The position numbers and the translations under genes are program-made. 55,852 nucleotides of DNA, from the NCBI GenBank assembly GCA_025351245.1, contig JANXWH010000098.1, forward strand, positions 1-55,852. Direction: 5' to 3'. Source of the DNA: Chloroflexota bacterium (lineage in GTDB: Bacteria > Chloroflexota > Limnocylindria > Limnocylindrales > CSP1-4). This document shows positions 11,351 to 55,613 of this stretch, piece by piece. Under the pieces are notes generated by a model, which saw nothing but the letters and a program-made list of their open reading frames with translations, was not told where the DNA came from and ran no database searches. Numbering within the stretch: the stretch's first letter is position 1; each line of letters begins with the position of its first letter.

Positions 11351-12042
11351 GGGGCGGGCTCGTCCGGGCCGCCCGGCCGGGTCCGCCGCCAACCCGTCCG
11401 GGTCCGACGGACGCCGTCGGCGCCGGGCGGCCCATCGACCTCGCCGGGCGGCGCGGTCCGCGTCTCGTCGGCGGGCCGCAGCTGGAAGGCGTTGTAGCGG
11501 TTCGAGGCCTTGCTCACGCCGTCGCGCGCCCACGCCTCCACCGCGTCCGCCGCCGCGTCCAGCAGCTCGTCGAGGCGCTGCCGCTCCGCGGGCTGGAAGA
11601 CCGAGAGGACGTGATCCACCGCGTCCCGGCCGGGCTCGCCGATCCCGATCCGGAGTCGCGGAAATGCCTCCGTGCTCAGCTCGTCGATGATCGAGCGGAG
11701 GCCGTTGTGGCCGCCGTGGCTGCCGCCCTCGCGGAAGCGCATCTTCCCGAAGGGCAGGCTGAAGTCGTCGGTCACCACGAGCAGCTCGTGGAGCGGGGCG
11801 CGCTCCCGGGCGATCAGCTTGCGCACCGCCACGCCGGAATCGTTCATGAATGTGAGCGGCTTCGCGAGCACGAGGTCCAGGCTCCGGAAGCGGCCCTGCA
11901 CGACGGCGCTCGCGTCACGCGTCCGCCCGCGGCCGGCCCAACCCGCCCGGTCCGCGAGCCGGTCCACCACCATCCAGCCGATGTTGTGGCGCGTCTTCGC
12001 GTACTGCTCGCCCGGATTCCCGAGCCCGACCACGACCTTCAC
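11347..12042 (-). CDS. pth: Peptidyl-tRNA hydrolase with a roughly 40-aa C-terminal extension
   Basis: The protein begins VKVVVGLGNPGEQYAKTRHNIGW and contains GGHNGLRS. The GTG at 12042 is preceded by GGAGGA. Confidence 0.9.
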   Translation of the reverse strand: MKVVVGLGNPGEQYAKTRHNIGWMVVDRLADRAGWAGRGRTRDASAVVQGRFRSLDLVLAKPLTFMNDSGVAVRKLIARERAPLHELLVVTDDFSLPFGKMRFREGGSHGGHNGLRSIIDELSTEAFPRLRIGIGEPGRDAVDHVLSVFQPAERQRLDELLDAAADAVEAWARDGVSKASNRYNAFQLRPADETRTAPPGEVDGPPGADGVRRTRTGWRRTRPGGPDEPAP

Positions 12043-12169: not shown

Positions 12170-12748
12170 TCACCCGGCGGCGAGGATCGTCCGCTCCAGC
12201 GCCCGCATGGCGACCTCCTCCGCGGGCTCCGCGTGGTCCCAGCCGCAGAGGTGGAGCCCGCCGTGGACCACGAGCAAGCGGAGCTCGTCGGCCGGAGTCC
12301 AACGGACGTCGCCTGTCTGGCCGCCGCGGCCCTCGGCCGCCTGAAGGACGGCGCGCTCGACCGAGACGACGATGTCGCCGAGATGGAGCCGCGTCCCGGG
12401 CGGCAGGAGGAATGCCCGCTCGGCGGCGGCCGGCCGCGCGGCCGGGACCGGCGCACCCGCATGCGGCGGGTACGCCTCCGACGGCAGGAGCGGAAACGAG
12501 AGGACGTCGGTCGCGCCCGACTTCCCGAGAAACGTCCGGTTGAGACGGGCCAGCTCCGGGTCGTCGGCAAGGACGAGGCCGACCGAGGCGGGCTCCGGCG
12601 CCCCTCCCGCCACGAGCGCCGACCGGAGGACGCGCGCGAGAGCGGCGGCGGGCAGCGCGAGCGGCACGCCGGCCCGGATCTCCAGGTCCACGCGGAACGG
12701 CGGCAGGTAGAACCGGCGCGGACCCGGGGTCGGCCGGGACGCGGTCAC
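12170..12748 (-). CDS. ybeY: rRNA maturation endoribonuclease YbeY
   Basis: It carries the zinc motif HGGLHLCGWDH. The GTG at 12748 overlaps the upstream stop (GTGA). Confidence 0.85.
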   Translation of the reverse strand: MTASRPTPGPRRFYLPPFRVDLEIRAGVPLALPAAALARVLRSALVAGGAPEPASVGLVLADDPELARLNRTFLGKSGATDVLSFPLLPSEAYPPHAGAPVPAARPAAAERAFLLPPGTRLHLGDIVVSVERAVLQAAEGRGGQTGDVRWTPADELRLLVVHGGLHLCGWDHAEPAEEVAMRALERTILAAG

Positions 12749-14901: not shown

Positions 14902-14905
14902 GGGA

Positions 14906-15427
14906 TCAGCCCGCGGGCGGGCCGCCGGCCGATCCGGCGCCACCGCCTCCGTGCGGGGCCGCGTCGTGCGCCGTGAGGTCCGCGGCCGCGAGCGCCTGCG
15001 CGACCAGCTCGCTGACGTGCTTCCCATCCGCGCGGCCGCGGGTCGGACCGGCCAGCCGGCCCATCACCCGGCCGAGGTCGCGGGCCGACACGGCGCCGGT
15101 CGCCGCGATCGCGTCGGCGATCAGCGCGTGCAGCTCATCCTCGGTGAGGGGCTGCGGGAGGTACGCAGCGATGACGCCGATCTCCGCCTCCTCGTTCGCG
15201 GCGAGGTCCTCGCGGCCGCCCTTCCGGTAGGCCTCCACGGATTCGCGTCGGGTCTTCACCTCGCGAACCAGGACGGCGAGCGTAGCGTCGTCGGAGAGCT
15301 GGGCGTGGTCGCGCTTCTCCAGGGCGTACACGCTGCTCCAGGCCATTCGGAGGGTGTCGCGGCGCAGCACGTCACCCGACCGCATGGCGGCGGTCATGTC
15401 GTCGTGAAGGCGATCTCGAAGGGACAC
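14906..15427 (-). CDS. yqeY: GatB/YqeY domain protein
   Basis: The sequence VSLRDRLHDDMTAAMRSGD...REVKTRRESVEAYRKGGREDLA matches the YqeY family pattern. The GTG at 15427 is the inferred start. Confidence 0.8.
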   Translation of the reverse strand: MSLRDRLHDDMTAAMRSGDVLRRDTLRMAWSSVYALEKRDHAQLSDDATLAVLVREVKTRRESVEAYRKGGREDLAANEEAEIGVIAAYLPQPLTEDELHALIADAIAATGAVSARDLGRVMGRLAGPTRGRADGKHVSELVAQALAAADLTAHDAAPHGGGGAGSAGGPPAG

Positions 15428-28496: not shown

Positions 28497-30422
28497 CTAG
28501 ACTTCCTTGAACTCGCCCTCGACCGTCTCGTCGTCGGCCTCCGGGGTTGCCGCGGGTTCGCCGCCTGGTTCGCCGGCCGGCCCGCCGGTCCCGTCGCCCG
28601 GGGGCGTGCTGGCCGCTGCGTAGGCCGCCGTGCCGACCTTCTGGAGCAGCTCGGCGAGCTCGGTCGCGCGCGCATGGACCACGTCGGCCGATTCGGTCTT
28701 GAGCGCGTTGCGGACGTCGGAGACCTTCCCCTCGACGGCGGCCCGGTCCTCGGGCGAGACCTTCTCGCCGAGATCCTTGAGCGTGCGCTCCGCCTGGAAC
28801 GTGAGCGCCTCCGCCTGGTTCCGGGTCTCGACCTCCTCGCGGCGCTTCTGATCTTCGGCCGCATGTTCGGTTGCCTCGCGGACCATCCGGTCCACGTCCT
28901 TCTTGTCCAGCATGGACGAGGCGGTGATCTGGACCTTCTGTTCCTTGCCGGTGGCGCGGTCCTTCGCCCGAACCTCCACGATGCCGTTCGCGTCGATGTC
29001 GAACGTCACCTCGACCTGGGGTACGCCGCGCGGGGCGGAGGGGATCCCGTCCAGGATGAACCGGCCCAGGGTCTTGTTGTCGGCCGCGAAGTCGCGCTCG
29101 CCCTGGAGGACGTGGATCTCGACCTGCGGCTGGTTGTCCGACGCCGTGGAGAAGACCTGGCTCTTCGAGGTCGGGATCGTCGTGTTTCGCTCGATGAGCT
29201 TCGTCATGACGCCGCCGAGCGTCTCGATGCCGAGGGAGAGCGGCGTGACGTCCAGCAGGAGGACGTCCTTGACGTCGCCCGCCAGGACGCCGGCCTGGAT
29301 CGCGGCGCCGACCGCGACGACCTCGTCTGGGTTGACGCCCCGGTTGGGCTCCTTGCCCCCGAACATCGCTTTGACGGCCTCGATGACCGCAGGCATCCGG
29401 GTCATGCCGCCAACCAGGACGACCTCGTCGATCTCGGCCGCGGTGAGGCCCGCGTCCTTGATCGCCTGGCTGACGGGGCCCTTCGTCTTCTCGACGAGGT
29501 CGCCAACAAGGTCCTCGAGCTTGGCGCGGGTGAGCGTCACGACCAGATGCTTCGGACCGGCGGCGTCCGCGGTGACGTAGGGCAGGTTGATCTCCGTGGA
29601 GATCGACGACGACAGCTCGATCTTTGCCTTCTCGGCCGCTTCCTTCAGGCGCTGGAGCGCCTGCGGATCGGAGTGCAGGTCGATCCCCTGGTCCTTCTTG
29701 AACTCCGCGAGGAGCCAGTCCATCACCCGGATGTCGAAATCGTCGCCGCCGAGATGCGTGTCGCCGTTCGTCGACTTGACCTCGAAGACGCCCTCGCCCA
29801 GCTCCAGGATCGAGATGTCGAACGTGCCGCCGCCCAGGTCGTAGACGGCGATCTTCTCGTCCTTCTGCTTGTCCAGGCCGTAGGCGAGCGACGACGCGGT
29901 GGGCTCGTTGATGATCCGCTTGACGTCCAGGCCGGCGATGCGGCCGGCGTCCTTGGTCGCCTGGCGCTGCGTATCGTCGAAGTAGGCGGGCACCGTGATG
30001 ACCGCCTCGGTCACCTTCTCGCCGAGGTACGCCTCCGCGTCCGCCTTGAGCTTCTGGAGGATCATCGCGGAGATCTCGGGCGGCGTGTAGTTCCGTCCGT
30101 CGGCGAGCGCCACCCGGAGCCCGTCGGATGCGGGGTCCTTCTCCACGGTGTACGGGACGAGCGCGCGGGCGTGCTTCACCTCCGGGTCGTCCCAGCGGCG
30201 CCCCATGAAGCGTTTGATCGAGTAGACGGTGTTGGCCGGGTTCGTGACCGCCTGGCGCTTCGCCAGCTGGCCGACGAGGCGCTCGCCGGTCTTCGTGAAG
30301 GCAACCACGGACGGGACGGTCCGGCCGCCCTCGGCGGACGCGATGACGGTCGGCTCGCCGCCCTCCATGACCGCGACGACCGAGTTCGTCGTACCGAGGT
30401 CGATGCCGATGATCTTGCCCAT
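28497..30422 (-). CDS. dnaK: Chaperone DnaK (Hsp70)
   Basis: It contains [17 protein letters not shown] and [10 protein letters not shown], giving full-length Hsp70 similarity. Confidence 0.98.
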
Positions 30423-42150: not shown

Positions 42151-42291
42151 TCAGCCGCCGATGCGGAACATCTTCGTGCCGCAAACCGGGCAGGTGCCCT
42201 GTGTAGCGGGCTTACCGTTCTTCATCGTGATCTTCTGTGCGTCCTTCATCTCGCGCTTTGCCTTGCACTTTACGCAGTACGCCTCGGCCAC
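42151..42291 (-). CDS. Small zinc-ribbon protein (46 aa), DUF5679-like
   Basis: The protein reads VAEAYCVKCKAKREMKDAQKITMKNGKPATQGTCPVCGTKMFRIGG, with CxxC...CxxC. The GTG at 42291 is preceded by GGAGG. Local GC is lower than in the surroundings. Confidence 0.7.
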   Translation of the reverse strand: MAEAYCVKCKAKREMKDAQKITMKNGKPATQGTCPVCGTKMFRIGG

Positions 42292-42460: not shown

Positions 42461-45400
42461 TCAAGCCGATTCCCGCGCGATTGGGCCGGATGACGCGCTC
42501 GGCGGCGCGGGATCGTCGGCAACCGCGACCTGATCCGGCGTCGACGCGGCCCTGAACGGGACCCCGATCTCGGCGACGCGTCGCGCGATGCGCGCCCGGA
42601 CGATGCGCCGATCCCGGCGTCGACGGACCACCACGAGCATCGCCCCGGCAGTGGCGAGCGCGCCGATCGAGCCGGCCCCGGCCGTCATCGGCGCAAACGG
42701 GACGTCGCCGACGCCACCCGCCGCGACCGTCTCCGGCGACGCGGTCACCGGCGACGAAGGTGCGCCTGGGTCATCCGACTGGAGTACCTCCGTGCCGTCG
42801 GCCGGGACGACTTTGTCCGAGAGCGGGAACTCCTCCCCGAGGTCGCCGAGCCGCACGAGGTCGGCCGCATCGGTCACCCGGATCGTCGGCGGCGTCCCGG
42901 CCTGGACGACACCAACAGCGCCGATGGCGTCACCGGGTCCAAGCAGCGGCAGCAGCGAACGCGCATCACCGGCGAGATCGAGTCGCACGCTCCCGGTCCC
43001 GTCATCGAGAACGAGCCCCGTCGCGTCCACCGCCACGACGAGGCCGCCGACACGGACGGAGCGGCCGGCGAGGCTGGCGAGGCCCGCAGCGTCCGCCGAC
43101 ACGGGTGCAGTCGTGCCCCCCGCTCCGCCCCAACCGAACGCCCCGGACGTGGCGGACGTGCCCGGCCCGCTCGCCCCCGCACCGGGTCGGGCCGTTCCCG
43201 CCGAGCCGGTTGCACGGGCAAGGACCCGGATGTCGGCTGGCGATCGCGGCACGATGACGAAGTGCTGGTCCGTCGCAGCCGGGTTCGGGCGGAGGAGGAT
43301 TCCGACGATGCGGACCCGGCTGCCCTCGGCGAGGGTCGTTGCCGGGATCCCGGCGCCCGGCAGCCCGGCAACCGGAACCGACCCGCCGGCGACAGCGAGC
43401 TCCGCGCGCCATCGATCCCCGAGTCGGCGCTGGGCGGCGACGGTGCCCTCGATCGCGACGAGGCGCCACTCCAGCGCGGTCGAGGGCGGGCCGGCCAGCG
43501 CAGTTGGAGCCGGCTCTGCCGCGTGCCCGAGGACGATAAGCGTTGCGGCGGTGATCCGCGGTGCGCCGTATGCGCGGCCGAGCGTTCCGACGACGCGCAC
43601 GCGGTCTCCGGGGCGCGGGGCGGACGCGTCGCGGGGAACCAGGAACTCGACGGCAGCCGTCGCGTCCTGGACCACCGACCGGCGGCCCGTCGCGTCGAGG
43701 AGCGTGCTCGACACGCTGACGGTTCCCTCGACCGCGACGCTCCCGCTCCCGAGGCCGAGTGCGGCCGCGATCGTCGCGACGGGTGGATCCGACGCGCCGG
43801 GCCGCGGACGCGGCGTCGTCCCAGGTGACGGCATGGGCGTCGGGCTCGGCGTGGCGCCGGCGGGCCGGGTCACGTCGCCCACGTCGCGCAGCCAGAGGCG
43901 ATAGCCATCGAGCTTCCCGCGAGCGGACGCACGCTGCCCCACGATGCCGACGAGGCGCAGCCGATCGCCGCGCCCAGCAACCTTCGGCTCTAGGCCGCTC
44001 GCGCGCGCGGCGCGAGCACGAAACGGCACGCCGGTCGCGTCGAGCAGGCTCAACACGAGGTCGCCGCCCGGCTCGCGGACGATGGCAGCGTCGAGCGTCG
44101 CGTCGAGCGTGACGAGGCGGGCCTCCACGAGCTCGCCGAGCGATGCGGCCCCGATCGGCAGCGGGTCGGCGAGCGTGGCCGCGCTGATGAGCCGGACGCC
44201 CTCGGCCGCCGGCCGGATCTCCAGCTGCCCGTACGGGTCGACCAGGCGGCCGACGACGTCAAGGAGCGCCCCGCGGGCCGGCGCCGCGCCGTCGGGGAAC
44301 CGGACGAAAATGCCGCCGCTCGCGTCGGCGACGACGCCAAGCGGCGGGAGCCCCACCCGTCCGGGCTCGGCGGTGACGACGCCGCGAACGCGGACCGTGG
44401 TCCCGATCGCCGCGCTGCGCGCAACCGCGATCGTCGCCGGTTCGCCGGGCGGTGCCGGCGTAGGCGACGGCGTAGGTGACGGGGCAGGTGACGGCGACGA
44501 CGGTGGCGATGGCGCAGGGCTCGGCCTGGGCGTTTGGGAAGGGCTCGGCGTGGGCGATGGCGAGGGCGCAGGGCTCGGCGTGGGCGATGGCGAGGGCGCC
44601 GGCTCCTCGATCAGGTCGAGCGCGTCGACGACGAACAGGCGATACCCGGTCGTGCCGGTCCCCGAGGAGTCGCGCTGCCCGAGCGAACCCGCGACCGAGA
44701 CGAGGCTGCCTCGGGCCGGCACGAACGCGCCCGCGCTCCCGGCGAAGATGATGCGCAGGGGGCCGGACCCATCATCGAGCGTGACCGCCGGACCGTCGGT
44801 GAGGATCGTCGGCGCGTCGACCACCGTGCCATGGACCCGGAGGCGCAGGCCCTCGAGCGGCTCGACCGCGGCGCCGGTCGTCGCCTCCGTCGCGAGCGGC
44901 ACCGGGCCGGCGGCCAGCAGCGTCGGCGGGCCCGCAAGTCGGATGGTGCGCTCGCCGTAGCGGTCATCGACGACGCCGGCCACGCGGATCAGCGACCCGG
45001 CCGCCATCGGATCGGCGACTGATGCCGCGTAGATCGCGATTCCCGCGGTGTCGTCCTGCAGGAACCCGCCGCGACCAGCCTCGAGGAGGCCGAGCGTGGT
45101 CGACAGGACGCCCTCGACCGTGACGGAGGTCCCGTCGGGTGCCCCGCGCGCCGCGGCGATCGAGACGGCGGCAATCGGTGTCGGCGACGGCGCCGGGCTC
45201 GGCGTTGGCGTGGGCGTCGGTGTCGGCGTGGGTGTCGGCGTGGGCGTGGGTGTCGGCGTGGGCGTGGGTGTTGGCGTCGGTGTTGGCGACGGCGCCGGGC
45301 TCGGCGTTGGCGTGGGCGTCGGCGTCGGCGTGGGCGTTGGCGTCGGAGACGCGGACGGCCCCGGAACGGGGGCTGCCGCGCGGCTTTGCGGGATCGGCGC

Positions 45401-46012
45401 CGGGAGCACCGCCCAATCTGCGGCGTTCTGGTTCGTGTCAGTGACGTTGCCACTGCTTCCGCCGGGTCGCCGCTCGATGCTCTGGCCGGCCGGCGGTGCC
45501 GTCGCGGCGGCGCCCTCGACGAACGCGTTCGTGGCATCGCCCCAACCAACCGCGTCGACGGGAGTCCCACCGACCGGACGAAGCACCAACGAGCCGCCCG
45601 TGGCCGCGAACCCGCCAGAATACGTGGCATCGGCGGTCGCGGCATACGATCCGAGGGCGTTCGCCACGAGCAGGTGCTGTCCCGTGGCGAGGAGCGTCAG
45701 GTCGCTCCAGGTCGCCTTCCTGGTCACGGTGGACCCCGACGACGTGACGTAGGCCAGCTCCATGCCCGCCAGGTCGGCCGGGACGGTACCTGCGTTCGTG
45801 ATCTCGACGTATTCGTCCGATGCGGACGTACCGCCGGTGACCACCTCGGCGATGAGGAGTCCCGCGGAGGGCGGCCACGCGACCGCCGCCGCGGGGCGCA
45901 GGTTCACCATCGGAGCGGGTGGCGCCTGGGGCCGCGGCGGGCCGCCAACCAACGTGGCGAGCAGAAGCAGGCTGGCGAGCGCGCCGAACGCGGCGCTCCT
46001 CGGGGCGCGCAT
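42461..46012 (-). CDS. Large secreted, C-terminally membrane-anchored protein with a lamin-tail domain, Pro/Thr/Ser linkers and about seven repeated beta-rich modules
   Basis: It has a signal peptide ([23 protein letters not shown]) and an LTD pattern (LLIAEVV...[18 protein letters not shown]...). Two PT/PS linkers follow, then repeated modules of the type IAAAR...G..V.VEGVV......GGF.QD..GI.........G..V.V.G.V. A C-terminal TM helix is followed by RRRRDRR. Confidence 0.75.
44455..44600. repeat. Low-complexity GC-rich repeat encoding the second Pro/Ser/Thr linker
   Basis: Reiterated GGCGAYGG/GGGCTCGGC units lie inside the CDS and encode [13 protein letters not shown]... Confidence 0.7.
45176..45350. 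repeat. Hexanucleotide-type repeat (GGCGTGGGYGTCGGY)n encoding the (PT)n linker
   Basis: Read directly from the sequence. It includes a roughly 38-nt segment (GGCGACGGCGCCGGGCTCGGCGTTGGCGTGGGCGTCGG) repeated about 101 nt apart. Confidence 0.8.
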
Positions 46013-46190
46013 GGACGACCTCCCGGCGGGCAGGTAGCGGCGGTGGGTGGCCGGCGGGCCGGACGTCGTGGCGGCAGCGACGCGATGGGTGTACCACGCA
46101 CCGCTCACCCATCACTTATCCGCAGCCGCGCTACGATGCTCGGCGCGGCACACCCCGCCGCCCCCCCCACGACACGACCCAGGAGGATCC

Positions 46191-46907
46191 GTGGCCCGCG
46201 CGAAGAGGACCGAGCGCGCCGAAGCTCGCCGCCGCTACCGTTCCGTCGAAGGAGTCACCGAGAACCCAGACCTCGAGATGGACGAGGCCGACGCCTTGGA
46301 CGTGCCGACCGCCGCGCTCCCCCGCGGCTCCCGTGCGAGAAGGGCCGAAGGTGGGGCGACTGCCCGGGGTGACGCCGCACCGCCCCCGCGCGCCGGCTTC
46401 CTCGCGTCACTTCGCCGCGCGGCGGCTCCGGCGGACATCCGCGCCGATGTCCGGGCGCTGCCGTCAATCGCGATCCACTCGAAGGCGCTCTGGGTGCCGC
46501 TGGCCGTGATCGGCGGCGTCACGGCGCTCTTCTTCATCCCCGGGATCTCGCGGAACCCGCTCGTCGCGCTGCTGGGAAACCTGGCGCTCCAGCCGCCGCC
46601 GATGATCCTGCCCTTCCTGGCCGGTATGCTGGCGCCACGGGGCGCCTGGCTCGTGGGCGGGATCGTGGCACTCGCCAACGCGGTCGCGTATGCACTGCTC
46701 TTCGGAGTCTTCACGAACTCGATCCAGACGGGGCTGGGCTTCACCTACGTCATGACCACGGACCAGAAGGTCGGGATCGTCGTGAACGCGATCCTGACCT
46801 CCGTGCCGTTCGGCATCCTCATCGGGGCGTTCGCCGGCTTCTACCGCCGGTTCCTCGCGATGTCGACCCCGGCCCGGCCTGCCCAGGCCAAGTCGAAGCG
46901 TCGCTGA
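46191..46907 (+). CDS. Hypothetical membrane protein with a basic, disordered N-terminal region
   Basis: The GTG at 46191 is preceded by AGGAGGA. An Arg-rich N-terminus of about 95 aa is followed by four to five TM segments. Confidence 0.6.
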   Translation: MARAKRTERAEARRRYRSVEGVTENPDLEMDEADALDVPTAALPRGSRARRAEGGATARGDAAPPPRAGFLASLRRAAAPADIRADVRALPSIAIHSKALWVPLAVIGGVTALFFIPGISRNPLVALLGNLALQPPPMILPFLAGMLAPRGAWLVGGIVALANAVAYALLFGVFTNSIQTGLGFTYVMTTDQKVGIVVNAILTSVPFGILIGAFAGFYRRFLAMSTPARPAQAKSKRR

Positions 46908-46955: not shown

Positions 46956-49900
46956 TCAGCCCAGCCGACGCATGCCCGCATGGCCAAGCTGGCGCACGCC
47001 GTCGGGTCGCTCGGGACCGCCGGCGGGTCGGGCCATCTCGACGAGCGGGCGGATCTCGTGGGCCACCACGTTCACCACGCTCGACTCCCGTTGCAGGCTT
47101 CCGTCAACCACCAGGAGGGCGTTGCGCCGTACCACGCCCCGCAGGCGCGCCCACGTGTCCGGCCAGAGCGTGACGTTGACCATCCCGGTCTCATCCTCGA
47201 GCGCGAGGAAGACGGTTCCCTTCGCCGTCATCGGGTGCTGGCGGGTCACGACCAGGCCACCCACCCGCACGCGACCGGGCCGCCGCTCCGCGAGCGCCGC
47301 GTTCGTGACCGCGCCCAGCCGCTCCAGCGCAGGGCGGAAGAGCCCCACCACCTGGCGCCGCGCGTCGAGCGAGAGGATCGCGTAGCTGTCACCGAGCCGC
47401 TCCAGCTCGGTGAGCGGCGGGAGGTCCGGCGCCGGCGTCGCCGGGAGCCGCAGGTCCAGGGGCCGGCCGGCCACCCGACCACCGCCCCTGGGTGCTCCTT
47501 TCGCCGGCCGTGCCACCTCCCGCAGCTGCCAGAGGAGCTCGCGGCGCGGCCGCCCCAGCGAGTCGAGCGCACCCGCGCGGATCAGCCGTTCGAGCACCTC
47601 CTCGGGGAGACCGGTCCGTTCCACGACGTCCGGAAGCGACGTGTAGGGACCGCGCGCCCGCTCCACGTCGAGGTGGGCGGCGTGCTCCTTGCCGATCCCC
47701 TTCACGAGATGAAGCCCCAGGCGGACGCCCCAGCCCACGGTGCCCTCCGCGGCCCATCGCTCACGCGCCGCGGAGACCGGGATCACGCAGGCTGACGAGC
47801 GAACCGGGCGCGGCCGCGCGGCGATCCCGGCATCGGCGGGGAGCGGCTCCCCGGGGTCGCCATCGTGGCGCCCGTCGTCGCCGGCCGTGCCCGCGAGCGC
47901 CCAGCCGGGCCGACCCGCCCACTCGGTCGTGGTTCGATGGAGGGACGCGTTGACGTCCACGGGGAGGACCGCGACGCCGTGGCGCTTCGCGTCGTTCACC
48001 AGCACCTCCACCGGATAGAAGCCCATCGGCTGGGCGTTGACCAGGCCAACGAGGAACTGGGCCGGGTAGAAGAGCTTGAGAAACGCCGACTCGTAGGCGG
48101 TCCGGGCAAAGGCTGCGGCGTGACTCTTTGCGAACCCGAAGCTCGCGAAGCCGGCGACCCCGCGGTAGAGCTCCTCCGCATCGACCCGCGGCATCCCCTG
48201 GACGCGAACGCAGCCGTCAACGAACCGGGCGTGGAGCTTCTCCATCTCCGCGCTAGAGCGCCACGTTCCCATCGCGCGACGGAACCCGTCCGAGTCCCCG
48301 GGCGAGAACCCGGCGACCTCGATCGCGATCCGCATCACCTGCTCCTGGTAGAGGATCACGCCCATCGAATCGCGGAGGATCGGCTCGAGCGACGGATGCA
48401 GGTAGGTCACCGGCTCCAGCCCCTGCCTGCGGCGCAGGTACGGGTGGACGGCGTTCCCCTGGATCGGGCCCGGCCGGATGATCGCGACCTCCACCACCAG
48501 GTCGTCAAGGCAGTTCGGGCGTGACTTCGGGAGCGTCTGCATCTGGGCTCGGCTCTCCACCTGGAAGACGCCCACGGTGTCGGCCGCCTGGAGCATCGCG
48601 AAGACCTCGGGGATCTCCTCCGGGAGCCGGTCGAGGTCCACGCACGTCGCGCAGTCGTGCTCCACGAGCGCAAGCGTCTCGTCCATGGCGGCGAGCATCC
48701 CGAGGCCCAGCAGGTCCAGCTTGATGAGCTTGAGCGTCTCCACGTCCCGCTTGTCGAACTGGACGACGACCCGGCCCGGCATCGTCGCGCGCTCCAGCGG
48801 CGCGATGTCGATGAGCGGCGCGGCAGTCACGAGCATGCCGCCGGTGTGGATGCTGAGGTGGCGGGGGAAGCCGTCGATTCGGGCGCACAGCTCCAGCCAG
48901 CGCTCCCACGGCGAGAGGCCGGCCACGCTCCCACCGCGCGGCCGGGACGGCGCCTCGGGGTCGATCCCGGGCGTCGGGCCGGGGGCGGGCGCCTCGGGGT
49001 CGGGGGCGGGCGTCGGGCCGTGGGCGGGCGCGGGATCCCAGTGCCTCGGCCGGCCCAGCCGGTCCACCGAGCGCGGCGGCGGCTCGAGGATCCCCGACTC
49101 CGCGTCGATCGCACGCCCGTCCATCGTGCCGGGCACGTCTGAGACGCGCCGCGGGCCGGCGCCAGGGCCGAATGTGTGTGCTGACGTGACCACCGGCGAC
49201 CCGCCGCGTGTCGGCGGCCCGACCGCGGTCGGCGAGCCGCCGCGCGCGAGCCACGCGACGCTCGCGGGGGAGTCGCCCGGGCCGCCCTTGTCATCCGACG
49301 GCCCACCCGAACGGATCGCGGGGCGGGGGCCACCGAACGGTGGACGGCCGTCAGGGCGCCCGGAAAGCCGAAACGGCAACGCGTGCCGAAACGCCGCCGT
49401 ATCACTCCCATCATTAGCGAGCAGGGTTCCACCGTCGGTGGTGCCAGCCACCAGCCTCGACCCGCCGGGCTGGCTGCTGCCGGGGGCCTGGTCGGAGCGT
49501 GACGCACCACGAACACGCTCCGAGAGTGCGGCGGCTGGGCCTCCCGAGCGCGTTCCCGGGCTCGGAGCGGCGACGGACGCCCCCGGAATGCTGTCCCCTA
49601 CGCCTGGGGCTGATACCGCGACGGCCTGGGCCGCGGGGACGAGCGTGGGTCCGTGCGCGGGGACGAGCGTGTGCCGAATCGCGGGGCCGAGCGTGTGCCC
49701 GACCGCGACGGCCTGGGCCGCGGGGCCGAGCGTGTCGTCCGACGGCCCACCGGGCCGAATCGCGTGGCCGAGCGTGTGCCGTGCCGCGGGGCCGAGCGTG
49801 TCGTCCGACGGCCCACCGGGCCGAATCGCGACGGCCTGGGCCGCGGGGCCTTCCCCCGCTCGGCGCGCGTCCTCGCGTCGCGGCAACCGCCCGTTCCCCG

Positions 49901-51695
49901 CCTCCCCCACTCCGCTGGTGCGGAGCCGCCCGCCACGAGCATGGTCGAGTTGTCCCATGTCGTCGACGAGCCCACGCGCGCCCGCGCGGACGGCCGAGGC
50001 TTCACCGTCCCGGACCTGACCGGGCCGTCGGAAGAACTCCGCGAAGCCGCCGTCAACCTCCAGGTCCCGCCGGACCATCACCGAGTCGTACGTCTCGAGC
50101 GCCTTCGCCACCCGGTCCACGAGGGGCCGCGGGAAGCCGAGGGCGGTGCCCACCTCGCGGACCGCCGAGCGCGCCCGGTACGTCACGAGATTGCAGACCA
50201 TCCCGGTGTGCTCGGCGCCGTAGCGCTCGTAGACGTACTGGATCACCTCCTCGCGGCGCGCCGAGGAGAAGTCGATGTCCACGTCCGGGTAGGTGGTCCG
50301 GCCCTCGTTGATGAACCGCTCGAAGAGGAGGTTGTGGCGGATGGGATCCACGCGGGTGATCCCGAGCGCGTACGCCACGATCGAATCCGCGGCACTCCCC
50401 CGTCCCTGGGCGGGGATCCGGCGTTCCTTCGCGAAGCGCATCAGGTCCCAGCAGATGAGGAAGAACTCGGCCAGGCCGGTCCGCTCGATGACATCCAGCT
50501 CGTGGGCGAGCTGGCGGACGACCGGTGGCGTCACCGGGTGATAGCGGCGCCGGATCCCCGCGTGGCAGAGCTCCACGAGGTACGAGAACGGCGTCTCGCC
50601 GCCGGGGACCGTGAAGCCCGGGAAGCGGTACCGCTCGAAGCCCAGGTCCACCGTGCAGGCCGCCGCGAGCGTGCCCGCGTTCGCGAGCCCCTCCGCCCAG
50701 GCGCGCGCGGTGTGCGGGTCCGAGGCGGCCGGGTCGCCGGGAGGGAGGGCCGCGAGCTCGGCCGCGGACTTGAGGTGATGCTCGCCGCTGGGGGTGCGCA
50801 GGTCGGCGAGCGTCTCGAGGCTCCGGCCGTGGCGGATCGCCACCAGGACGTCGTGAAGCTCGCGGTCTCCCGGGCGCGCGTAGTGGACGTCGTTCGTGAC
50901 GACCACCGGGAGGCCCAGCTCAGCGGCCAGGCGCGCGGACTCCGCCACGAGCCAGTCATCGTCGGGGAGGAGATGATGGGCCAGCTCGATCACGAAGCCG
51001 GCGCCGGCGATCGTCTCGCCGGGACCGCCGAACCGGCGCGCATATTCCTCGGCCACCGCCCGCGCCCCCGCCCGGTCGCCCGCCCGGAGCCGCCGCGCCA
51101 GCTCGCTCTCCCGGCAGCCCGAGAGCGCCACGAGCCCGTCGACGTGATCCGCGAGGAGCGCCTGGGTGAGCCGGGGCGCGGCCTTGGTCCCGGCCAGGTT
51201 CGCGCGGCTCAGGAGCCGGCAGAGGCTCCGGTACCCGGTCGCGTCGCGGGCGAGCAACACGAGATGCGGTCCCCGCTGGGGCGCCCCCACGCCGCGGTGG
51301 TCCTCCTTCGTCGCTGCCCGGTGGCCGGGCAGGCGCGCGCGCTCCGGTCGCGGCCGGACGGGCAGGCCCGCGAGCGGCCGCTCGGCCCGAGCGCCGTCGG
51401 GGGCGGACGGGTGACCCCGGCGGGCAGGCCGGCGACCCGGGATGACAAGCCCGTCCGGATCCGGGACCAGCGGGTCGGCGAGCTCCACCTCCACCCCGAT
51501 CACCGGATGGAGGCCCGCCTCCTCCGCCGCCGTCGCGAAGCGGACGACCCCGTAGAGGCCCCGGTGGTCCGTGACGGCAAGGCCCGAGAGCCCCAGCTCC
51601 ACGGCCCGCGCGACGAGGTCCGCGGGCGGCGAGGCGCCGTCGAGGAAGGAGAAGTTCGTGTGCGCGTGGAGCTCGGCATAGGGCGGCGCGGGCAT
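46956..51695 (-). CDS. dnaE2: Error-prone DNA polymerase III alpha-like subunit DnaE2 (ImuC) with a large internal insertion
   Basis: The PHP N-terminus reads YAELHAHTNFSFLDGAS. Palm and finger motifs are present (FPRHLSIHTGGMLV, VVQFDKRDVE, GLLKIDLLGL-like), along with a C-terminal OB region. At 1579 aa it is much longer than typical DnaE2, which I recall as about 1050-1100 aa. Confidence 0.9.
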   Translation of the reverse strand: MPAPPYAELHAHTNFSFLDGASPPADLVARAVELGLSGLAVTDHRGLYGVVRFATAAEEAGLHPVIGVEVELADPLVPDPDGLVIPGRRPARRGHPSAPDGARAERPLAGLPVRPRPERARLPGHRAATKEDHRGVGAPQRGPHLVLLARDATGYRSLCRLLSRANLAGTKAAPRLTQALLADHVDGLVALSGCRESELARRLRAGDRAGARAVAEEYARRFGGPGETIAGAGFVIELAHHLLPDDDWLVAESARLAAELGLPVVVTNDVHYARPGDRELHDVLVAIRHGRSLETLADLRTPSGEHHLKSAAELAALPPGDPAASDPHTARAWAEGLANAGTLAAACTVDLGFERYRFPGFTVPGGETPFSYLVELCHAGIRRRYHPVTPPVVRQLAHELDVIERTGLAEFFLICWDLMRFAKERRIPAQGRGSAADSIVAYALGITRVDPIRHNLLFERFINEGRTTYPDVDIDFSSARREEVIQYVYERYGAEHTGMVCNLVTYRARSAVREVGTALGFPRPLVDRVAKALETYDSVMVRRDLEVDGGFAEFFRRPGQVRDGEASAVRAGARGLVDDMGQLDHARGGRLRTSGVGEAGNGRLPRREDARRAGEGPAAQAVAIRPGGPSDDTLGPAARHTLGHAIRPGGPSDDTLGPAAQAVAVGHTLGPAIRHTLVPAHGPTLVPAAQAVAVSAPGVGDSIPGASVAAPSPGTRSGGPAAALSERVRGASRSDQAPGSSQPGGSRLVAGTTDGGTLLANDGSDTAAFRHALPFRLSGRPDGRPPFGGPRPAIRSGGPSDDKGGPGDSPASVAWLARGGSPTAVGPPTRGGSPVVTSAHTFGPGAGPRRVSDVPGTMDGRAIDAESGILEPPPRSVDRLGRPRHWDPAPAHGPTPAPDPEAPAPGPTPGIDPEAPSRPRGGSVAGLSPWERWLELCARIDGFPRHLSIHTGGMLVTAAPLIDIAPLERATMPGRVVVQFDKRDVETLKLIKLDLLGLGMLAAMDETLALVEHDCATCVDLDRLPEEIPEVFAMLQAADTVGVFQVESRAQMQTLPKSRPNCLDDLVVEVAIIRPGPIQGNAVHPYLRRRQGLEPVTYLHPSLEPILRDSMGVILYQEQVMRIAIEVAGFSPGDSDGFRRAMGTWRSSAEMEKLHARFVDGCVRVQGMPRVDAEELYRGVAGFASFGFAKSHAAAFARTAYESAFLKLFYPAQFLVGLVNAQPMGFYPVEVLVNDAKRHGVAVLPVDVNASLHRTTTEWAGRPGWALAGTAGDDGRHDGDPGEPLPADAGIAARPRPVRSSACVIPVSAARERWAAEGTVGWGVRLGLHLVKGIGKEHAAHLDVERARGPYTSLPDVVERTGLPEEVLERLIRAGALDSLGRPRRELLWQLREVARPAKGAPRGGGRVAGRPLDLRLPATPAPDLPPLTELERLGDSYAILSLDARRQVVGLFRPALERLGAVTNAALAERRPGRVRVGGLVVTRQHPMTAKGTVFLALEDETGMVNVTLWPDTWARLRGVVRRNALLVVDGSLQRESSVVNVVAHEIRPLVEMARPAGGPERPDGVRQLGHAGMRRLG
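49617..49850. repeat. Direct repeats inside the dnaE2 insertion
   Basis: A 47-nt perfect repeat, CCGCGGGGCCGAGCGTGTCGTCCGACGGCCCACCGGGCCGAATCGCG, occurs at 49718-49764 and 49784-49830 (period 66 nt, or 22 codons). GCGACGGCCTGGGCCGCGGGG recurs three times. Confidence 0.8.
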
Positions 51696-52928: not shown

Positions 52929-53177
52929 TCAGTCGTAGAGCCGTTCCAGGTGCCACGAGCCGTCCACGCGGTCCAGGTAGACGAGGGCGAGCCACTGGCG
53001 TCCGACAACCTTGAAGTAGTCGCGCGCGATCGGGCGACCCCACCACGCCTCGTCGACGCGCCAGCGCGTGCAGACCTCCACCGGCTCGCGACGGCCGGCC
53101 CAGCGAATCGCGACGAGGCGGCCGGCTTCGTCCAGCTCCGCCTCCACGGCCGGGTGCTCGCGCAGGAGGCGCGTCAC
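52929..53177 (-). CDS. Small conserved-looking protein (82 aa) translationally coupled to imuB, function unknown
   Basis: The protein reads VTRLLREHPAVEAELDEAGRLVAIRWAGRREPVEVCTRWRVDEAWWGRPIARDYFKVVGRQWLALVYLDRVDGSWHLERLYD. The GTG at 53177 overlaps the imuB TGA (GTGA). The composition is aromatic-rich and not low-complexity. Confidence 0.6.
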   Translation of the reverse strand: MTRLLREHPAVEAELDEAGRLVAIRWAGRREPVEVCTRWRVDEAWWGRPIARDYFKVVGRQWLALVYLDRVDGSWHLERLYD

Positions 53178-54463
53178 CGGGCCGGCTCCGCGCCGTCGGC
53201 GGCCACGGGACGCCACGTCCAGCGTGCCTCGGGCAGCGGCGCCTCGGGATCGGCGAGGGCCAGCCGGCCCACTCGACCCTCCCCATAGCGGACGGCCAGC
53301 CGGGCGAGCTGCCAGCCGAGCCGGGTGGCCGCGTTCGCCTGGGGGACAAAGAGCGCGAGCTGGTAGCCGGCGGCGGGCGTGACGTCGAGCAGCTCCAGGT
53401 CCAGGCGCGCGATCGGCGCGGCGGGCGGGTCCTTCTCGAGGCGCGCGAGGAGGAGCCGCTCCAGCGCCTCCGGATCCGCGGAGGGTTCCGGGAACCGCTG
53501 CTCCACGATCCGCCGCGGGAGGTCCTCGCCGGGGAGCGGGAGCCGGCCCGGCAGGAACGTGGGGTCGAGCGTGAGCGTCAACCGGGCGCGTCCCGCGGCC
53601 GAGCCCCGCGCGTCGAGCTGCGCCGCGAGCGCCCCCGCGACCCGCCGCAGGACGAAGCGGACCGCCTCCAGCCCGACGATCGGCTCGTCGGTGGAGAGCC
53701 CCAGCGCCAGCCGTTCGGGACTGCGGCGCGGGCGGAACGGCTCCGTCTCGCGGCCGTTCGCCCGATCGTGGAGCCGCGCGCCGACGTCCGTCCCGAAGCG
53801 CGCCACGAGCGCCGAGCGCGGCAGCACGCCGACCTCCCCGATCGTCGCGAGGCCGAACCGGGCAAGCCGGGCACGCACCTCCGGATCGCGCGAGAGGGCC
53901 GCGGCCGGGAACGGGGCGAGGAACGCGGCATCCCCGCCGGGCGGCACGCAGACACACGGGACGGCGGCCGGGCCCGGGCCGGTGGCGGCGGCGAGCGCGG
54001 CCGCGAACCGGGTCCCGGCGATCCCCGCCCGCGGCGTCCCCGGGAGAAGCGGCGCGAGCGCGGCACGGACCTTCGCGAGCAGGACCGGCTCCGACCCCCA
54101 GAGCGGCTCCAGGCCGTCGAGCTGGACCTCGAGCGTCCCAAACGCGAGATCGGCGGCATCAAGCGGGCCGGCGATGCCCGGGCTGAACGCCGCGAGCGTA
54201 TCGAGCGCCGCTTCGACGGCCGTCGCGTCCGCCCCGGGGTCGGGCGGGATGAACGTGGCCTCCGGGGCGAGCCGGTGCGCCTGCCCGAGGGGGATCCCCC
54301 GCCGGACGCCGAGATCCCGGGCGGCCTGGTTCGCGTCGAGGACGACGCCGTCATCCCACGGCTGCCCGCCGAGGATAAGCGGTCCGTCGGGCAGGTTCCC
54401 GGGCGGCCGCTGCCGGGCGAGCCGGAGCGCGAGATGTGGCCAGGAGAGATGGAGGAGGCGCAT
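53174..54463 (-). CDS. imuB: ImuB, Y-family polymerase-like mutasome subunit
   Basis: The N-terminus MRLLHLSWPHLALRLA...VVLDANQAARDLGVRRGIPLGQA is typical of ImuB-type, catalytically inactive Y-family proteins. Its position between imuA' and dnaE2 fits. Confidence 0.85.
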   Translation of the reverse strand: MRLLHLSWPHLALRLARQRPPGNLPDGPLILGGQPWDDGVVLDANQAARDLGVRRGIPLGQAHRLAPEATFIPPDPGADATAVEAALDTLAAFSPGIAGPLDAADLAFGTLEVQLDGLEPLWGSEPVLLAKVRAALAPLLPGTPRAGIAGTRFAAALAAATGPGPAAVPCVCVPPGGDAAFLAPFPAAALSRDPEVRARLARFGLATIGEVGVLPRSALVARFGTDVGARLHDRANGRETEPFRPRRSPERLALGLSTDEPIVGLEAVRFVLRRVAGALAAQLDARGSAAGRARLTLTLDPTFLPGRLPLPGEDLPRRIVEQRFPEPSADPEALERLLLARLEKDPPAAPIARLDLELLDVTPAAGYQLALFVPQANAATRLGWQLARLAVRYGEGRVGRLALADPEAPLPEARWTWRPVAADGAEPAR

Positions 54464-55613
54464 CGGTCGATGGGTGGGGCTCGTGCTGCGGTCCAGGTGG
54501 AATGGCGGAGATGGGTTGGAGGGAGGTGACGGCGGAAGTGGCGGCGCCCCGCCGGAGGATGCCGGGCGGCGCTCCCGCGACGGGCGGCGCTCCCGCGACG
54601 GGCTCCTCCACCAGGAGCTCGTCGCGGGCCAGGCAGCGGTCCCGCGGCCCGCCCTCCGCGTAGAGGATCCGGAGCGTGGTCCGCCGGTCCGGCGCCCCGT
54701 GGTGGTCCTTCGCGACGCGGACCTCCGTCCGCTGCCCCACGACCTCGCGACCCAGCCGGACCCAGCCGCTCCGCCGGAGCTCCAGGCGCAGGCCGGCGCC
54801 CTCGTCGAGCGCGGCCCGGAGCGGCGCGGGGGTGTCGGCCGGCTCGAGGACGAGAAGGAGCGCGCCGGCCCGCCGGGCGAACGCGACCAGTCGTGCCAGC
54901 TGGTCGGCGAGGTTGGGCGCGCGCGGGCCGCGCCGGACCGGGACCATGGGGGTTGCCGGCGTGGTGGTTGCCGGCCGCCCCGCGCGCGCCAGCCGCCCCG
55001 CGCGCGCCGTCCCCAGGTCCAGCACCAGGATGTCCACCGCGCGCGCCTGGAGCAGCGTGCCGGCCATCGCGAGCGCCTCGGCCGAGTCGTCCGGTACCAG
55101 GACCGCGAGCCACTCGAGACGGACGCCGCGGGCCACCGCCTCGACGGGGTCGAGCGCATGCGGGAGGTCCACCCAGGCAGCGAGCGCGCCCCCGACCTGC
55201 GCCTCGGCGAGCACTCGGAGCGCGAGCGTCGTCGCGCCGCTGGAACCCGCTCCCGCGAGCGCGACGGTCCCGGCCCGCGGGAGGCCGCCGGCGGCGAGGA
55301 GCGCGTCGAGCGCGGGAAAACCCGTCGGGATCGTCCGGTCGGGCGCGGCCGGTGCGGGTCGGGAGCGAGGCACGACGGGAATCGGGTTTGGCGTCCGCAT
55401 GTCGGGCAGCGGGAGCAGCGCTGGGTGACCGCCGGGAGGCGGGGTCCTGGTGTCGGGCGCCGTTGTCAGCGGCCCGGTCGTCGGCTGGTTCGCCGTCGGG
55501 CGAGAGGCCACCGCGAGCGCGCCGAACACCTCCGTCGCCGGCCGCGGAGCTGCCGCACCCCAGCGCTCCCGGAGAGAGGCGAGGACGGCGGCGCGGTCGG
55601 GGTGGCGGTCCAT
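54351..55613 (-). CDS. imuA: ImuA'-like RecA-fold protein (SOS mutasome component) with a low-complexity C-terminal tail
   Basis: It contains TGFPALDALLAAGGLPRAGTVALAGAGSSGATTLALRVLAEA, a degenerate RecA/SulA-like P-loop region. The ATG at 55613 lies just downstream of an SOS box. The longer track ORF would run into the tRNA gene. Confidence 0.75.
   Translation of the reverse strand: MDRHPDRAAVLASLRERWGAAAPRPATEVFGALAVASRPTANQPTTGPLTTAPDTRTPPPGGHPALLPLPDMRTPNPIPVVPRSRPAPAAPDRTIPTGFPALDALLAAGGLPRAGTVALAGAGSSGATTLALRVLAEAQVGGALAAWVDLPHALDPVEAVARGVRLEWLAVLVPDDSAEALAMAGTLLQARAVDILVLDLGTARAGRLARAGRPATTTPATPMVPVRRGPRAPNLADQLARLVAFARRAGALLLVLEPADTPAPLRAALDEGAGLRLELRRSGWVRLGREVVGQRTEVRVAKDHHGAPDRRTTLRILYAEGGPRDRCLARDELLVEEPVAGAPPVAGAPPGILRRGAATSAVTSLQPISAIPPGPQHEPHPSTDAPPPSLLATSRAPARPAAAAREPARRTAYPRRAAVG

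Follow-up and report, generated by a model that had tools for sequence, protein, structure and literature searches.

A membrane-anchored lamin-tail protein with seven OB modules and no recognisable enzyme domain in Limnocylindria

What could be the task of a long surface protein that carries the lamin-tail and oligonucleotide/oligosaccharide-binding (OB) domains of an extracellular nuclease and lacks the nuclease itself? This question is raised by a gene at positions 42461-46012 of a contig of 55,852 nucleotides from a Chloroflexota bacterium of the class Limnocylindria (JANXWH010000098.1 of assembly GCA_025351245.1), the whole of which was analysed and is called the window here. An earlier reading of the same DNA, made from the letters alone and called the original prediction below, had described the product as a membrane-anchored lamin-tail-domain protein with OB-like repeats. 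Judged by its sequence and by structural models, the product is a non-enzymatic type I membrane protein of Limnocylindria, and on sequence comparison it is best described as the non-catalytic front end of an ExeM/NucH-type nuclease in which the OB pair was tripled and a seventh OB was added.

Architecture of the protein and fold of its modules

The gene is a single long open reading frame (ORF) on the minus strand, and its frame stays open beyond the ATG at 46012 as far as a GTG at 46108. We took the ATG at 46012 as the start because a GGGAGG Shine-Dalgarno sequence lies 6 nt 5' of it and the N-termini of the homologs begin at the same conserved MRxPR as the window protein, which gave a product of 1183 amino acids (aa). 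Long ORFs on the opposite strand over the gene were set aside as by-products of the 73-75% G+C content. From the N- to the C-terminus the protein consists of a signal peptide, the lamin-tail domain (LTD), a (PT)n linker, three pairs of OB modules (A1B1, A2B2 and A3B3) with a linker after each, a single OB module C, a stalk, a transmembrane (TM) helix and a basic helix. These features are listed here with the evidence for each, where pLDDT is the predicted local distance difference test score of the model, pTM is its predicted template modelling score and E is the E-value:

45941-46012, minus strand: Sec-type signal peptide, aa 1-24, MRAPRS and a hydrophobic stretch (top hydrophobic window; model helix aa 2-22)
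45401-45868, minus strand: lamin-tail domain, aa 49-204, acidic (Pfam PF00932; beta-sandwich in the model, pLDDT >90)
45176-45400, minus strand: (PT)n linker, aa 205-279, disordered (34 Pro and 22 Thr in 75 residues; pLDDT <50; 6-bp tandem repeat)
44909-45175, minus strand: OB module A1, aa 280-368, BOF/ExeM-NucH type (pair model pLDDT 95; overlaps the NF033681 match)
44603-44908, minus strand: OB module B1, aa 369-470, with a DDGSG motif, rigid on A1 (pair pTM 0.89; B1/C E 2e-8)
44444-44602, minus strand: Pro/Ser-rich linker, aa 471-523, disordered (26 Pro and 14 Ser in 53 residues; pLDDT <50)
43865-44443, minus strand: pair of A2 (aa 524-612) and B2 (aa 613-716), mildly basic (internal similarity; pLDDT >90; charge +1 and +1)
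43784-43864, minus strand: short Pro-rich linker, aa 717-743 (pLDDT <50 at aa 720-739; composition)
43214-43783, minus strand: pair of A3 (aa 744-836) and B3 (aa 837-933), the most basic (A1/A3 E 2.8e-10; pLDDT >90)
43112-43213, minus strand: Gly/Ala/Ser/Thr-rich linker, aa 934-967 (pLDDT <50 at aa 937-967; composition)
42848-43111, minus strand: OB module C, the seventh, aa 968-1055, tRNA_anti-codon type, acidic, without aromatic residues (Pfam PF01336; pLDDT >90)
42689-42847, minus strand: disordered acidic membrane-proximal stalk, aa 1056-1108 (pLDDT <50; identity 0.26; 35-73 aa)
42563-42688, minus strand: TM helix, aa 1109-1129, and basic cytoplasmic helix, aa 1130-1150 (hydrophobicity; a single model helix, aa 1113-1149)
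42461-42562, minus strand: variable disordered cytoplasmic tail, aa 1151-1183, and stop codon (pLDDT <50; identity 0.23; 0-47 aa)

A full-length AlphaFold2 model built on 86 sequences showed eight folded domains with pLDDT >90, which were the LTD (aa 52-203), A1 (284-367), B1 (375-469), A2 (526-611), B2 (618-712), A3 (745-830), B3 (838-932) and C (971-1054), and all confidently folded segments of the model could be assigned to the LTD or to OB modules. The segments aa 227-273, 479-520, 720-739, 937-967 and 1056-1114 and the C-terminal tail were disordered in it. About 1,085 aa form the ectodomain, in which rigid domains are strung on five disordered linkers; these have 242 residues in total and are mostly rich in Pro, Thr and Ser, one being rich in Gly and Ala. 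We estimate that, at an extension of about 0.3 nm for each residue, the five linkers alone would span about 70 nm.

Hydrophobicity along the protein is highest in two windows, aa 6-24 and aa 1111-1129. An AxA site follows the N-terminal hydrophobic stretch in most homologs, so this stretch was taken to be a cleavable Sec signal, although the window ortholog itself has no obvious cleavage site. Since such a signal is combined with a TM anchor and no LPXTG motif was found in the window protein or in 26 homolog C-termini, a type I topology with the LTD outermost is predicted; from the membrane outward, sequence and models give the order C, A3B3, A2B2, A1B1 and the LTD at the tip. The Gram_pos_anchor profile reached 14.4 bits against a cut-off of 20 and covered the hydrophobic segment only. 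The C-terminus is a Gly-rich TM segment followed by RRRR and then by a conserved helix and tail of 30-55 aa, and the basic cytoplasmic helix (RRRRxRR..ARIAxRLA) was conserved in all C-termini inspected. A sortase signal was rejected because there is no LPXTG, and another C-terminal sorting signal looks doubtful, as the tail is longer than is typical of one. The ends and linkers of the protein had been read correctly from the letters alone: the signal peptide (hydrophobic at aa 6-24), the (PT)n linker (aa 205-279), the second PS linker (aa 471-523) and the C-terminal TM helix with a basic tail (aa 1109-1129, then RRRRDRR) were all recovered.

The LTD gave a PF00932 match at aa 49-158 with 41.3 bits for the whole protein and 45.6 bits for the domain alone (cut-off 34.3), and the two motifs by which it had been recognised in the original prediction, EYVEITN (aa 67-73) and DLAGMEL (aa 80-86), lie inside this match. 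All of the 40 family members that were searched matched the LTD profile (E <= 0.01), some homologs remaining under the Pfam cut-off. In the full-length model the domain is an Ig-like beta-sandwich of about 10 strands (aa 52-203, pLDDT >90). It is also the most conserved part of the protein, with a mean pairwise identity of 0.67 vs 0.47-0.56 for the OB modules.

The OB modules, for which "about seven" had been predicted, number exactly seven by internal E-values and models, and the predicted repeat pattern was found in them (IAAAR at aa 285, IAVAR at 528 and IAAAL at 748; GGFLQD at 315; YG...I at 352, 594 and 815). In an all-against-all comparison of the inter-linker segments, A1, A2 and A3 were 35-38% identical to each other with E from 3e-10 to 3e-5 (A1/A2 E 3.6e-10; A1/A3 E 2.8e-10), B1 was similar to B2 (E 3e-6) and to C (E 2e-8), and the A and B types were related too (A2/B1 E 1.5e-6; A3/C E 4e-5). 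An AlphaFold2 model of A1 and B1 built on 40 homologous sequences (pLDDT 95, pTM 0.89) showed two five-to-six-stranded barrels as one rigid unit. Each module is predicted to be a beta1-3/helix/beta4-5 barrel with a short helix between strands 3 and 4, at pLDDT >90. The OB family PF01336 was matched by the whole protein with 34.8 bits (cut-off 27), the best stretch being aa 1000-1039 in module C, which alone gave 18.4 bits, and by 39 of the 40 members (E <= 0.01) with up to 60.8 bits. The A and B modules are tied to the OB family through C, because of the internal similarity. Thus the Pfam searches for LTD and OB families that had been proposed with the original prediction both gave matches above the cut-off.

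The structural comparison, which had been proposed there as well, gave confident OB barrels with nucleic-acid-type matches; all Foldseek statements here refer to the matches listed, that is, to the top 50 of each search. When the pair model was compared with the PDB, only nucleic-acid-binding OB proteins were among the matches listed. The top ones were the HIN-200 tandem OBs of IFI16, AIM2, p202, p204 and MNDA, with E from 5e-6, a TM-score of 0.38-0.43, a root-mean-square deviation (rmsd) of 8-9 A and 8-12% identity, and others were RPA, Teb1 and the single-stranded DNA-binding protein (SSB) of Deinococcus. The anticodon-binding OB of asparaginyl-tRNA synthetase (AsnRS) was aligned with B1 of the pair model at 3.1 A over 96 columns with 24% identity. 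The viral structure library gave baculovirus LEF-3, SSBs and the OB folds of ExoVII, RecJ and DnaE, and the full-length model gave p204 HINab on double-stranded DNA (E 3e-11), bS1, BRCA2, RPA70, Thermus SSB and POT1. A search of PDB sequences with the pair profile gave sub-threshold matches only, and all of these were OB folds (TPP1/ACD, RPA32, STN1, AsnRS). No Ig-like, adhesin or staphylococcal-nuclease structure was among the matches listed in any of the Foldseek searches, which ruled out an adhesin or Ig-like fold for the repeats, the outcome that would have spoken against the original prediction; the matches belonged to OB folds of the nucleic-acid superfamily instead.

The modules differ in net charge, and the differences are conserved across the family. 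The LTD (-9), A1 (-4), B1 (-6) and C (-9) are acidic; A2 (+1), B2 (+1), A3 (+2) and B3 (+5; both family means) are basic, and B3 has an isoelectric point of about 11. Aromatic residues are sparse in the modules, and C has none. The basic pairs have invariant Arg/Trp/Tyr clusters at beta4-L45-beta5, and their conserved residues include Q693, R694, Y704, R705, W707 and R709 in B2 and W849, R867, W868, R908 and R923 in A3B3.

Absence of an enzyme domain and comparison with known systems

The claim that the protein has no catalytic domain held in every profile search. Neither the window protein, whole or module by module (Pfam and NCBIfam, E up to 1), nor any of the 40 members (E up to 0.01) or 8 length variants (E up to 0.001) matched a catalytic family, and searches of the window protein with PADLOC, PHROGs and PDB sequences found no catalytic domain either. 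The endonuclease/exonuclease/phosphatase (EEP) domain in particular was matched neither in the window protein (E up to 1) nor in the 40 members and 8 variants. Matches to PARP, SslE, TonB, a PHROG and several PDB chains all lay on the low-complexity Pro-rich linkers, those to the PHROG and PDB sequences on the PT linker, and were discarded.

The possibility that one or more OB modules are catalytic themselves, so that the protein would still be a surface nuclease, has to be weighed at this point. The staphylococcal nuclease (SNase) fold is derived from the OB fold, and each module has invariant Asp, Glu or Arg residues, which in B1 include E384, E387, D414, Q446, D448 and R458. Nevertheless, we consider a cryptic enzyme extremely improbable: SNase, EEP, metallophosphatase and other catalytic families were unmatched in the searches above, no SNase-type structure was among the matches listed for the pair and full-length models, and the modules, at 85-105 aa, fall short of the size of an SNase domain. 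At the beta2-beta3 turn lies the DDG(S/T)G motif, which we take to be a structural motif of this OB family.

The original prediction had linked the protein to ExeM/NucH-type nucleases and had stated that the LTD and the barrels flank the nuclease domain there. The link was supported by the searches, and the flanking arrangement was not, since LTD and OB both precede EEP. NF033680 and NF033681 were matched by 35 and 33 of the 40 members, in the LTD and OB parts only, with a best E of 2.3e-10. In the window protein the matched stretches are aa 38-156 (profile positions 12-128 of 884) and aa 320-396 (31-111 of 546), and its scores against the ExeM/NucH models were 24.8 bits vs a cut-off of 300 and 18.5 vs 1300. 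ExeM and Xds are built of a signal peptide, an LTD, an OB region, an EEP nuclease and a C-terminal hydrophobic segment; deletion of the OB region abolishes the DNase activity of both, and the LTD, whose role is not established, is largely dispensable for it (PMC6085458, PMC6746945). Proteins with an LTD, a nucleic-acid-binding part and a nuclease are also found in DNA-degradation loci of sediment bacteria (PMC8289736).

The window protein shares with ExeM, Xds and NucH the signal peptide, LTD and OB in the same N-terminal order, and with ExeM and Xds also the retention at the surface by a C-terminal hydrophobic segment that is followed by basic residues. It differs from them in several ways. 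The EEP catalytic domain is theirs and is missing from the window family; one OB is annotated in Xds and two putative OB regions in ExeM, against seven here; and the long Pro-rich linkers are specific to the window family. The C-terminal signal of ExeM is short and of the GlyGly-CTERM type, in contrast to the cytoplasmic tail of 30-55 aa in the window family. Moreover, Cys residues that may be disulfide-bonded were noted in ExeM and two Cys residues were mutated in work on Xds, whereas most members of the window family (80 of 106 proteins) are free of Cys.

Like the HIN-200 proteins (AIM2, IFI16, p202/p204), the window protein would use a rigid tandem OB pair as a unit that is repeated along the chain. 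But the HIN-200 proteins are cytosolic and eukaryotic, no Pfam HIN match was found for the window protein or the 40 members, and the geometry within the pair differs, with a TM-score below 0.5. The likeness is an analogy of design, not family membership.

Another relation concerns the BOF family (PF04076; YgiW/VisP, YdeI/OmdA, SipA), whose members are exported OB folds as well. The A1-type module of some homologs passed the BOF cut-off (35.7 and 32.8 bits vs 25.8) and 20 of the 40 members matched NF033674, the YgiW/YdeI model; no BOF match was found in the window protein (Pfam), so the relation lies at the level of the homologous module. BOF proteins come from Gram-negative bacteria, where they are small periplasmic proteins with a single domain, whereas A1 is one of seven modules in a protein of 1,183 aa. 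Their reported ligands and effects are diverse: porins are bound by BOF proteins, cationic antimicrobial peptides are ligands of SipA, and YgiW/SipA give protection from cadmium and peroxide (PMC6370654); VisP/YgiW is reported to bind peptidoglycan, as stated in PMC5636140 with reference to Moreira 2013.

These ligands suggest a second alternative, in which the acidic LTD, A1B1 and C would act as a sponge for cationic antimicrobial peptides, polyamines or metal ions, as proposed for SipA. The strong and conserved acidity of these four domains and the BOF-like A modules agree with it. The argument is one of analogy only, however, it leaves the conserved basic A3B3 unexplained, and no stress-regulon context is visible beside the gene, so we regard a cation sponge as very unlikely.

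YhcR of B. subtilis, SWAN of S. sanguinis and SsnA of S. gordonii are cell-wall-anchored nucleases of Firmicutes that contain OB folds; they also have nucleotidase domains and end in an LPXTG sortase signal. The window protein resembles them in that its OB folds are exported and it is anchored to the surface at its C-terminus, but it has no nuclease or nucleotidase domain and no LPXTG. One relative (P0257) is labelled "YhcR" by JGI. The N-terminal OB of ComEC (DUF4131) likewise stands outside the cytoplasmic membrane, in a DNA-uptake machine, and DUF4131 was matched by 5 of the 40 members (best E 2.3e-5) and by the window protein with 17 bits vs a cut-off of 31.6; unlike ComEC, the window protein has no competence-channel and no metallo-beta-lactamase domain. 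ComH was dropped as an example of an OB-fold DNA receptor, as its DNA-binding domain is of unknown fold and the OB belongs to ComEC. As for the phage-decoy role that the original prediction had also mentioned, nothing in PADLOC, PHROGs or IMG/VR supports it: the window protein matched 0 families of the PADLOC defence models, and no phage relatives of it were found in IMG/VR.

Distribution, variation and genomic neighbourhood

A linker-free search gave 819 proteins, and nearly all full-length ones had 1,100-1,290 aa with LTD and OB. The few named relatives are called "lamin tail domain-containing protein" or "hypothetical" and come from metagenome-assembled genomes (MAGs) of Candidatus Limnocylindrales or Chloroflexota. 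To the question of phylogenetic distribution, which the original prediction had left for checking, a scan of one genome per GTDB species answered with at least 283 species genomes that carry a relative, in Limnocylindria and all MAGs; the closest was a Chloroflexota MAG with 93% identity. The scan pattern (a GQRDS motif) is family-specific, which means that relatives without the motif in other phyla would be missed. A profile search of representative clusters found 295 at E <= 1e-30, 1,817 at E <= 1e-10 and 5,499 at E <= 1e-3, so that the OB module is seen to have a wide penumbra of more distant matches; the best 150 of these 5,499 clusters were the LTD/OB family itself.

Labels of Dormiibacterota, Anaerolineaceae or Cellulomonas were set aside as binning or naming artefacts on account of the same gene order or a chimeric look; for the first two, the gene order was the same and the neighbours were highly similar. 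Under the Cellulomonas sp. label, the protein P0106, which fills a contig of 2362 nt, has an S8 peptidase domain joined exactly at the PT linker to A1B1-A2B2 with 85% identity to the window protein, which is most likely a chimeric assembly through repetitive linker DNA and otherwise a domain-swapped paralog. The linker DNA of the window contains tandem repeats with a period of 6 (28.7 copies at 45175-45346, Tandem Repeats Finder) and with periods of 12, 24 and 30 (44451-44599). One metatranscriptome contig has a 41-nt joint that goes back at repeated linker DNA, and in MAG SMAG_U483 the contigs L016 and L018 both carry A1B1. Repeated linker DNA is likely a hotspot for slippage and assembly breaks.

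The locus was also found in sediment metagenomes. Soil metatranscriptome contigs with 90-99% identity cover unique parts of the gene, which indicates that the window gene or close orthologs are transcribed in soil, with the reservation that DNA may be present in libraries of this type.

Module sizes hardly differ between family members, with medians within about 2 aa of those of the window protein, and the linkers vary widely, the PT linker having 36-183 aa; this is expected for a design of spacers and binders. Four short variants (P0195, P0203, P0212, P0224; 949-1067 aa) had two matched pairs and three long ones (P0121, P0162, P0226; 1411-1511 aa) had five or six matched stretches, with LTD and OB only in all of them. 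Since sub-lineages match the pair profile in two to six stretches, the number of OB modules is evolutionarily plastic. In P0162 and P0226 the LTD begins near aa 214-229, an extra N-terminal region being present.

The gene always lies between an imuB/dnaE2-type cassette and the genes DUF5679-gap-pgk-eno, and a membrane protein of about 240 aa lies on the dnaE2 side. Among 83 loci, dnaE2 was present in 71, DUF5679 in 73 and gap in 72, and the loci without them mostly end at contig edges. The protein was 42-46% identical in relatives where GAPDH was 80-87% identical (neighbours 75-87%); such faster divergence is typical of a surface-exposed protein. That the gene order is conserved is a sign of collinear genomes and does not point to a functional module. 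No nuclease, nucleotidase, transporter or competence gene adjoins the gene, no nuclease, nucleotidase, competence or pilus gene and no paralog were found in the 55-kb window, no sorting-enzyme gene was identified among the neighbours, and a promoter and terminator scan at the gene gave nothing informative.

This constant setting brings in a third alternative, a structural envelope protein whose OB modules would be oligosaccharide binders and which, through these and the LTD, would bind peptidoglycan or another wall or S-layer polymer instead of nucleic acid. It would link the cytoplasmic membrane with the wall or serve as a spacer within the envelope of a Chloroflexota cell with one membrane. 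A core gene in at least 283 species genomes with a constant housekeeping neighbourhood suits this role, and so do the BOF-type matches of the A modules together with the peptidoglycan binding reported for VisP/YgiW in PMC5636140, as well as the acidity of LTD, A1B1 and C. Exported proteins that span the wall typically have long Pro/Thr/Ser linkers and almost no Cys, as is the case here, and in Corynebacterium LTD and ExeM/NucH proteins are listed as anchored surface proteins. Yet sequence and structure both place B and C among the OB folds of the nucleic-acid type, and the domain order is that of DNases whose OB region is needed for DNA degradation. The wall-binding domains LysM, SH3b, PG_binding and SLH were not found either (Pfam; window protein and 40 members), and the protein evolves much faster than its neighbours. 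We therefore treat an envelope role as a possible but doubtful explanation.

The membrane protein beside the gene is retained at this place even in distant relatives and was detected by tblastn in 43 of the 83 loci:

46191-46907, plus strand: divergent membrane protein of about 240 aa (a gene of 238-263 aa at the same position and in the same orientation in L001-L003)

Its N-terminus is basic (MARAKRTERAEARRRYR) and a PPP motif is invariant in it; searches with Pfam, NCBIfam, PADLOC and PHROG gave no match. Possibly it is a partner of the TM helix and tail of the LTD/OB protein. A dedicated processing protease is unlikely, because neither Ser nor Cys was invariant at any position when four sequences were aligned and no family was matched.

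A partner of this kind would fit a fourth alternative, in which the LTD and OB modules form a protein-protein scaffold that recruits secreted enzymes or S-layer or pilus components, or signals through the cytoplasmic helix to the divergent membrane protein. Many OB folds act in protein contacts, such as those of RPA32, Stn1, TPP1 and RMI2, and the closest PDB and Pfam sequence matches of B and C are just TPP1/ACD, RPA32, STN1 and RMI2; these matches (E 0.08-0.4 and 0.017) are, however, not significant. BOF proteins bind porins (PMC6370654), the LTD as the most conserved part suggests one specific conserved partner, and both the basic cytoplasmic helix and the divergent neighbour are conserved. 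On the other hand, no partner was identified, and the divergent neighbour has no recognisable function and is undetected by tblastn in about half of the loci. We rate a scaffold as improbable.

The remaining genes of the window are described here for completeness. A DUF5679 zinc-ribbon protein of 46 aa (42151-42291, minus strand) lies directly downstream of the LTD/OB gene, and the two are not an obligatory operon because a PNP_UDP_1 gene intervenes in some relatives. The dnaE2-like polymerase (46956-51695, minus strand, 1579 aa; relatives 1414-1449 aa) has PHP, pol3_alpha, finger, HhH and OB domains, the pol3_alpha domain being matched in two stretches. About 350-450 aa of low-complexity repeats (e.g. 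AIRPGGPSDDTLGPAA, twice) extend from about aa 550 to the finger domain at aa 1000, and no intein domain was detected in the polymerase. Its C-terminal OB (46956-47270) and module C fall into one Pfam family and are weakly similar, with 42% identity over 48 aa (E 3e-4 in a nine-sequence search), which is probably a family resemblance and not evidence of local duplication. An imuB-like gene (IMS family) was found at 53174-55159, with the dnaE2-like gene downstream of it. Positions 1-40524 hold housekeeping genes, namely a Dak1 kinase subunit, a PAS histidine kinase (5185-6852), mfd (7535-11533), a 7TM-HD receptor (12745-15027), an AMP-binding enzyme, dnaJ, a ROK kinase, dnaK (28497-30422), hrcA, lepA, eno and pgk, and no mobile elements or DNA-uptake genes were found in this part.

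Proposed function as a surface tether and its meaning

Taking these results together, we tentatively propose that the LTD/OB protein is a non-catalytic tether for extracellular DNA (eDNA) or another polyanion, a reading from sequence and models which we find quite possible while giving it somewhat less than an even chance. A multivalent tether is suggested because rigid modules stand on long flexible spacers, are tied to the membrane and contain no enzyme. By sequence and models the protein is anchored after Sec export in the cytoplasmic membrane by the C-terminal TM helix with the basic helix inside, and several weak OB-ligand contacts on a flexible line of tens of nm could capture a polyanionic polymer at the surface, most likely extracellular DNA or RNA. 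The basic pairs A2B2 and A3B3, which would be near the membrane and have the Arg/Trp/Tyr clusters, are the likeliest units for polyanion binding, while the LTD, A1B1 and C, being acidic, probably have another ligand or bind by means of divalent cations. Nucleic acid held in this way would then be within reach of nucleases, phosphatases or uptake machinery that are encoded separately.

A nucleic-acid ligand is favoured by the homology to the front end of a DNase, by the Pfam assignment of C together with the similarity of B to C, by structural neighbours that were of the nucleic-acid type only (among the matches listed), and by the conserved basic A3B3 and A2B2 with their invariant Arg/Trp/Tyr residues. 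Several points weigh against it. Four of the eight folded domains (LTD, A1, B1 and C) are strongly acidic and aromatic residues are few, and the A modules match BOF/YgiW, a family known to bind peptidoglycan, cationic peptides and porins, not nucleic acid. The structural likeness of the modelled pairs is at the level of the fold only, with about 10% identity, a TM-score of 0.38-0.43 and an rmsd of 8-9 A. The gene is a core gene at a fixed position and not part of a DNA-degradation or competence locus, which suits an envelope role at least equally. Finally, the members are known from MAGs alone and no cultured organism, and nucleic-acid binding is a prediction from sequence. Module charge, BOF likeness and core-gene context thus weaken the picture of a uniform array of DNA binders, and the functional reading of the original prediction is plausible but unproven and needs to be qualified, as the modules differ in charge and type.

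Part of this was known before. The family is present in databases under generic names, and the association of LTD and OB in secreted bacterial proteins was noted by Mans et al. 2004, in the form in which PMC6085458 and PMC6746945 cite that work. New is the defined architecture across the sampled Limnocylindria, with an LTD, three rigid OB pairs, one further OB, a TM helix and no catalytic domain, and, as far as sequence comparison goes, the clear derivation from the ExeM/NucH scaffold.

A bolder version of the tether, which we think unlikely to hold in full, is that all Limnocylindria, which are uncultured but abundant in soil and sediment, may carry a non-enzymatic extracellular nucleic-acid receptor, a membrane-anchored line of HIN-like tandem-OB pairs derived from a DNase without its catalytic domain. 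If true, this receptor would be a bacterial surface counterpart of the eukaryotic tandem-OB DNA sensors and would add a new route of eDNA capture for phosphorus scavenging, DNA uptake or attachment to a matrix.

Surface nucleases made of LTD, OB and EEP are known in the turnover of extracellular DNA, the remodelling of biofilms and the scavenging of nutrients. The window family keeps the front end that handles the substrate, multiplied to seven OBs in the window protein, and has dropped the enzyme in every sampled member. If the ligand is nucleic acid, this would define a non-catalytic device for eDNA capture and would offer modular, well-folding and Cys-free OB pairs for biochemistry. If it is a wall polymer, the protein would be a core envelope component of a widespread uncultured lineage of soil and sediment. 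Whichever the ligand, the LTD/OB family offers a testable context for the bacterial LTD.

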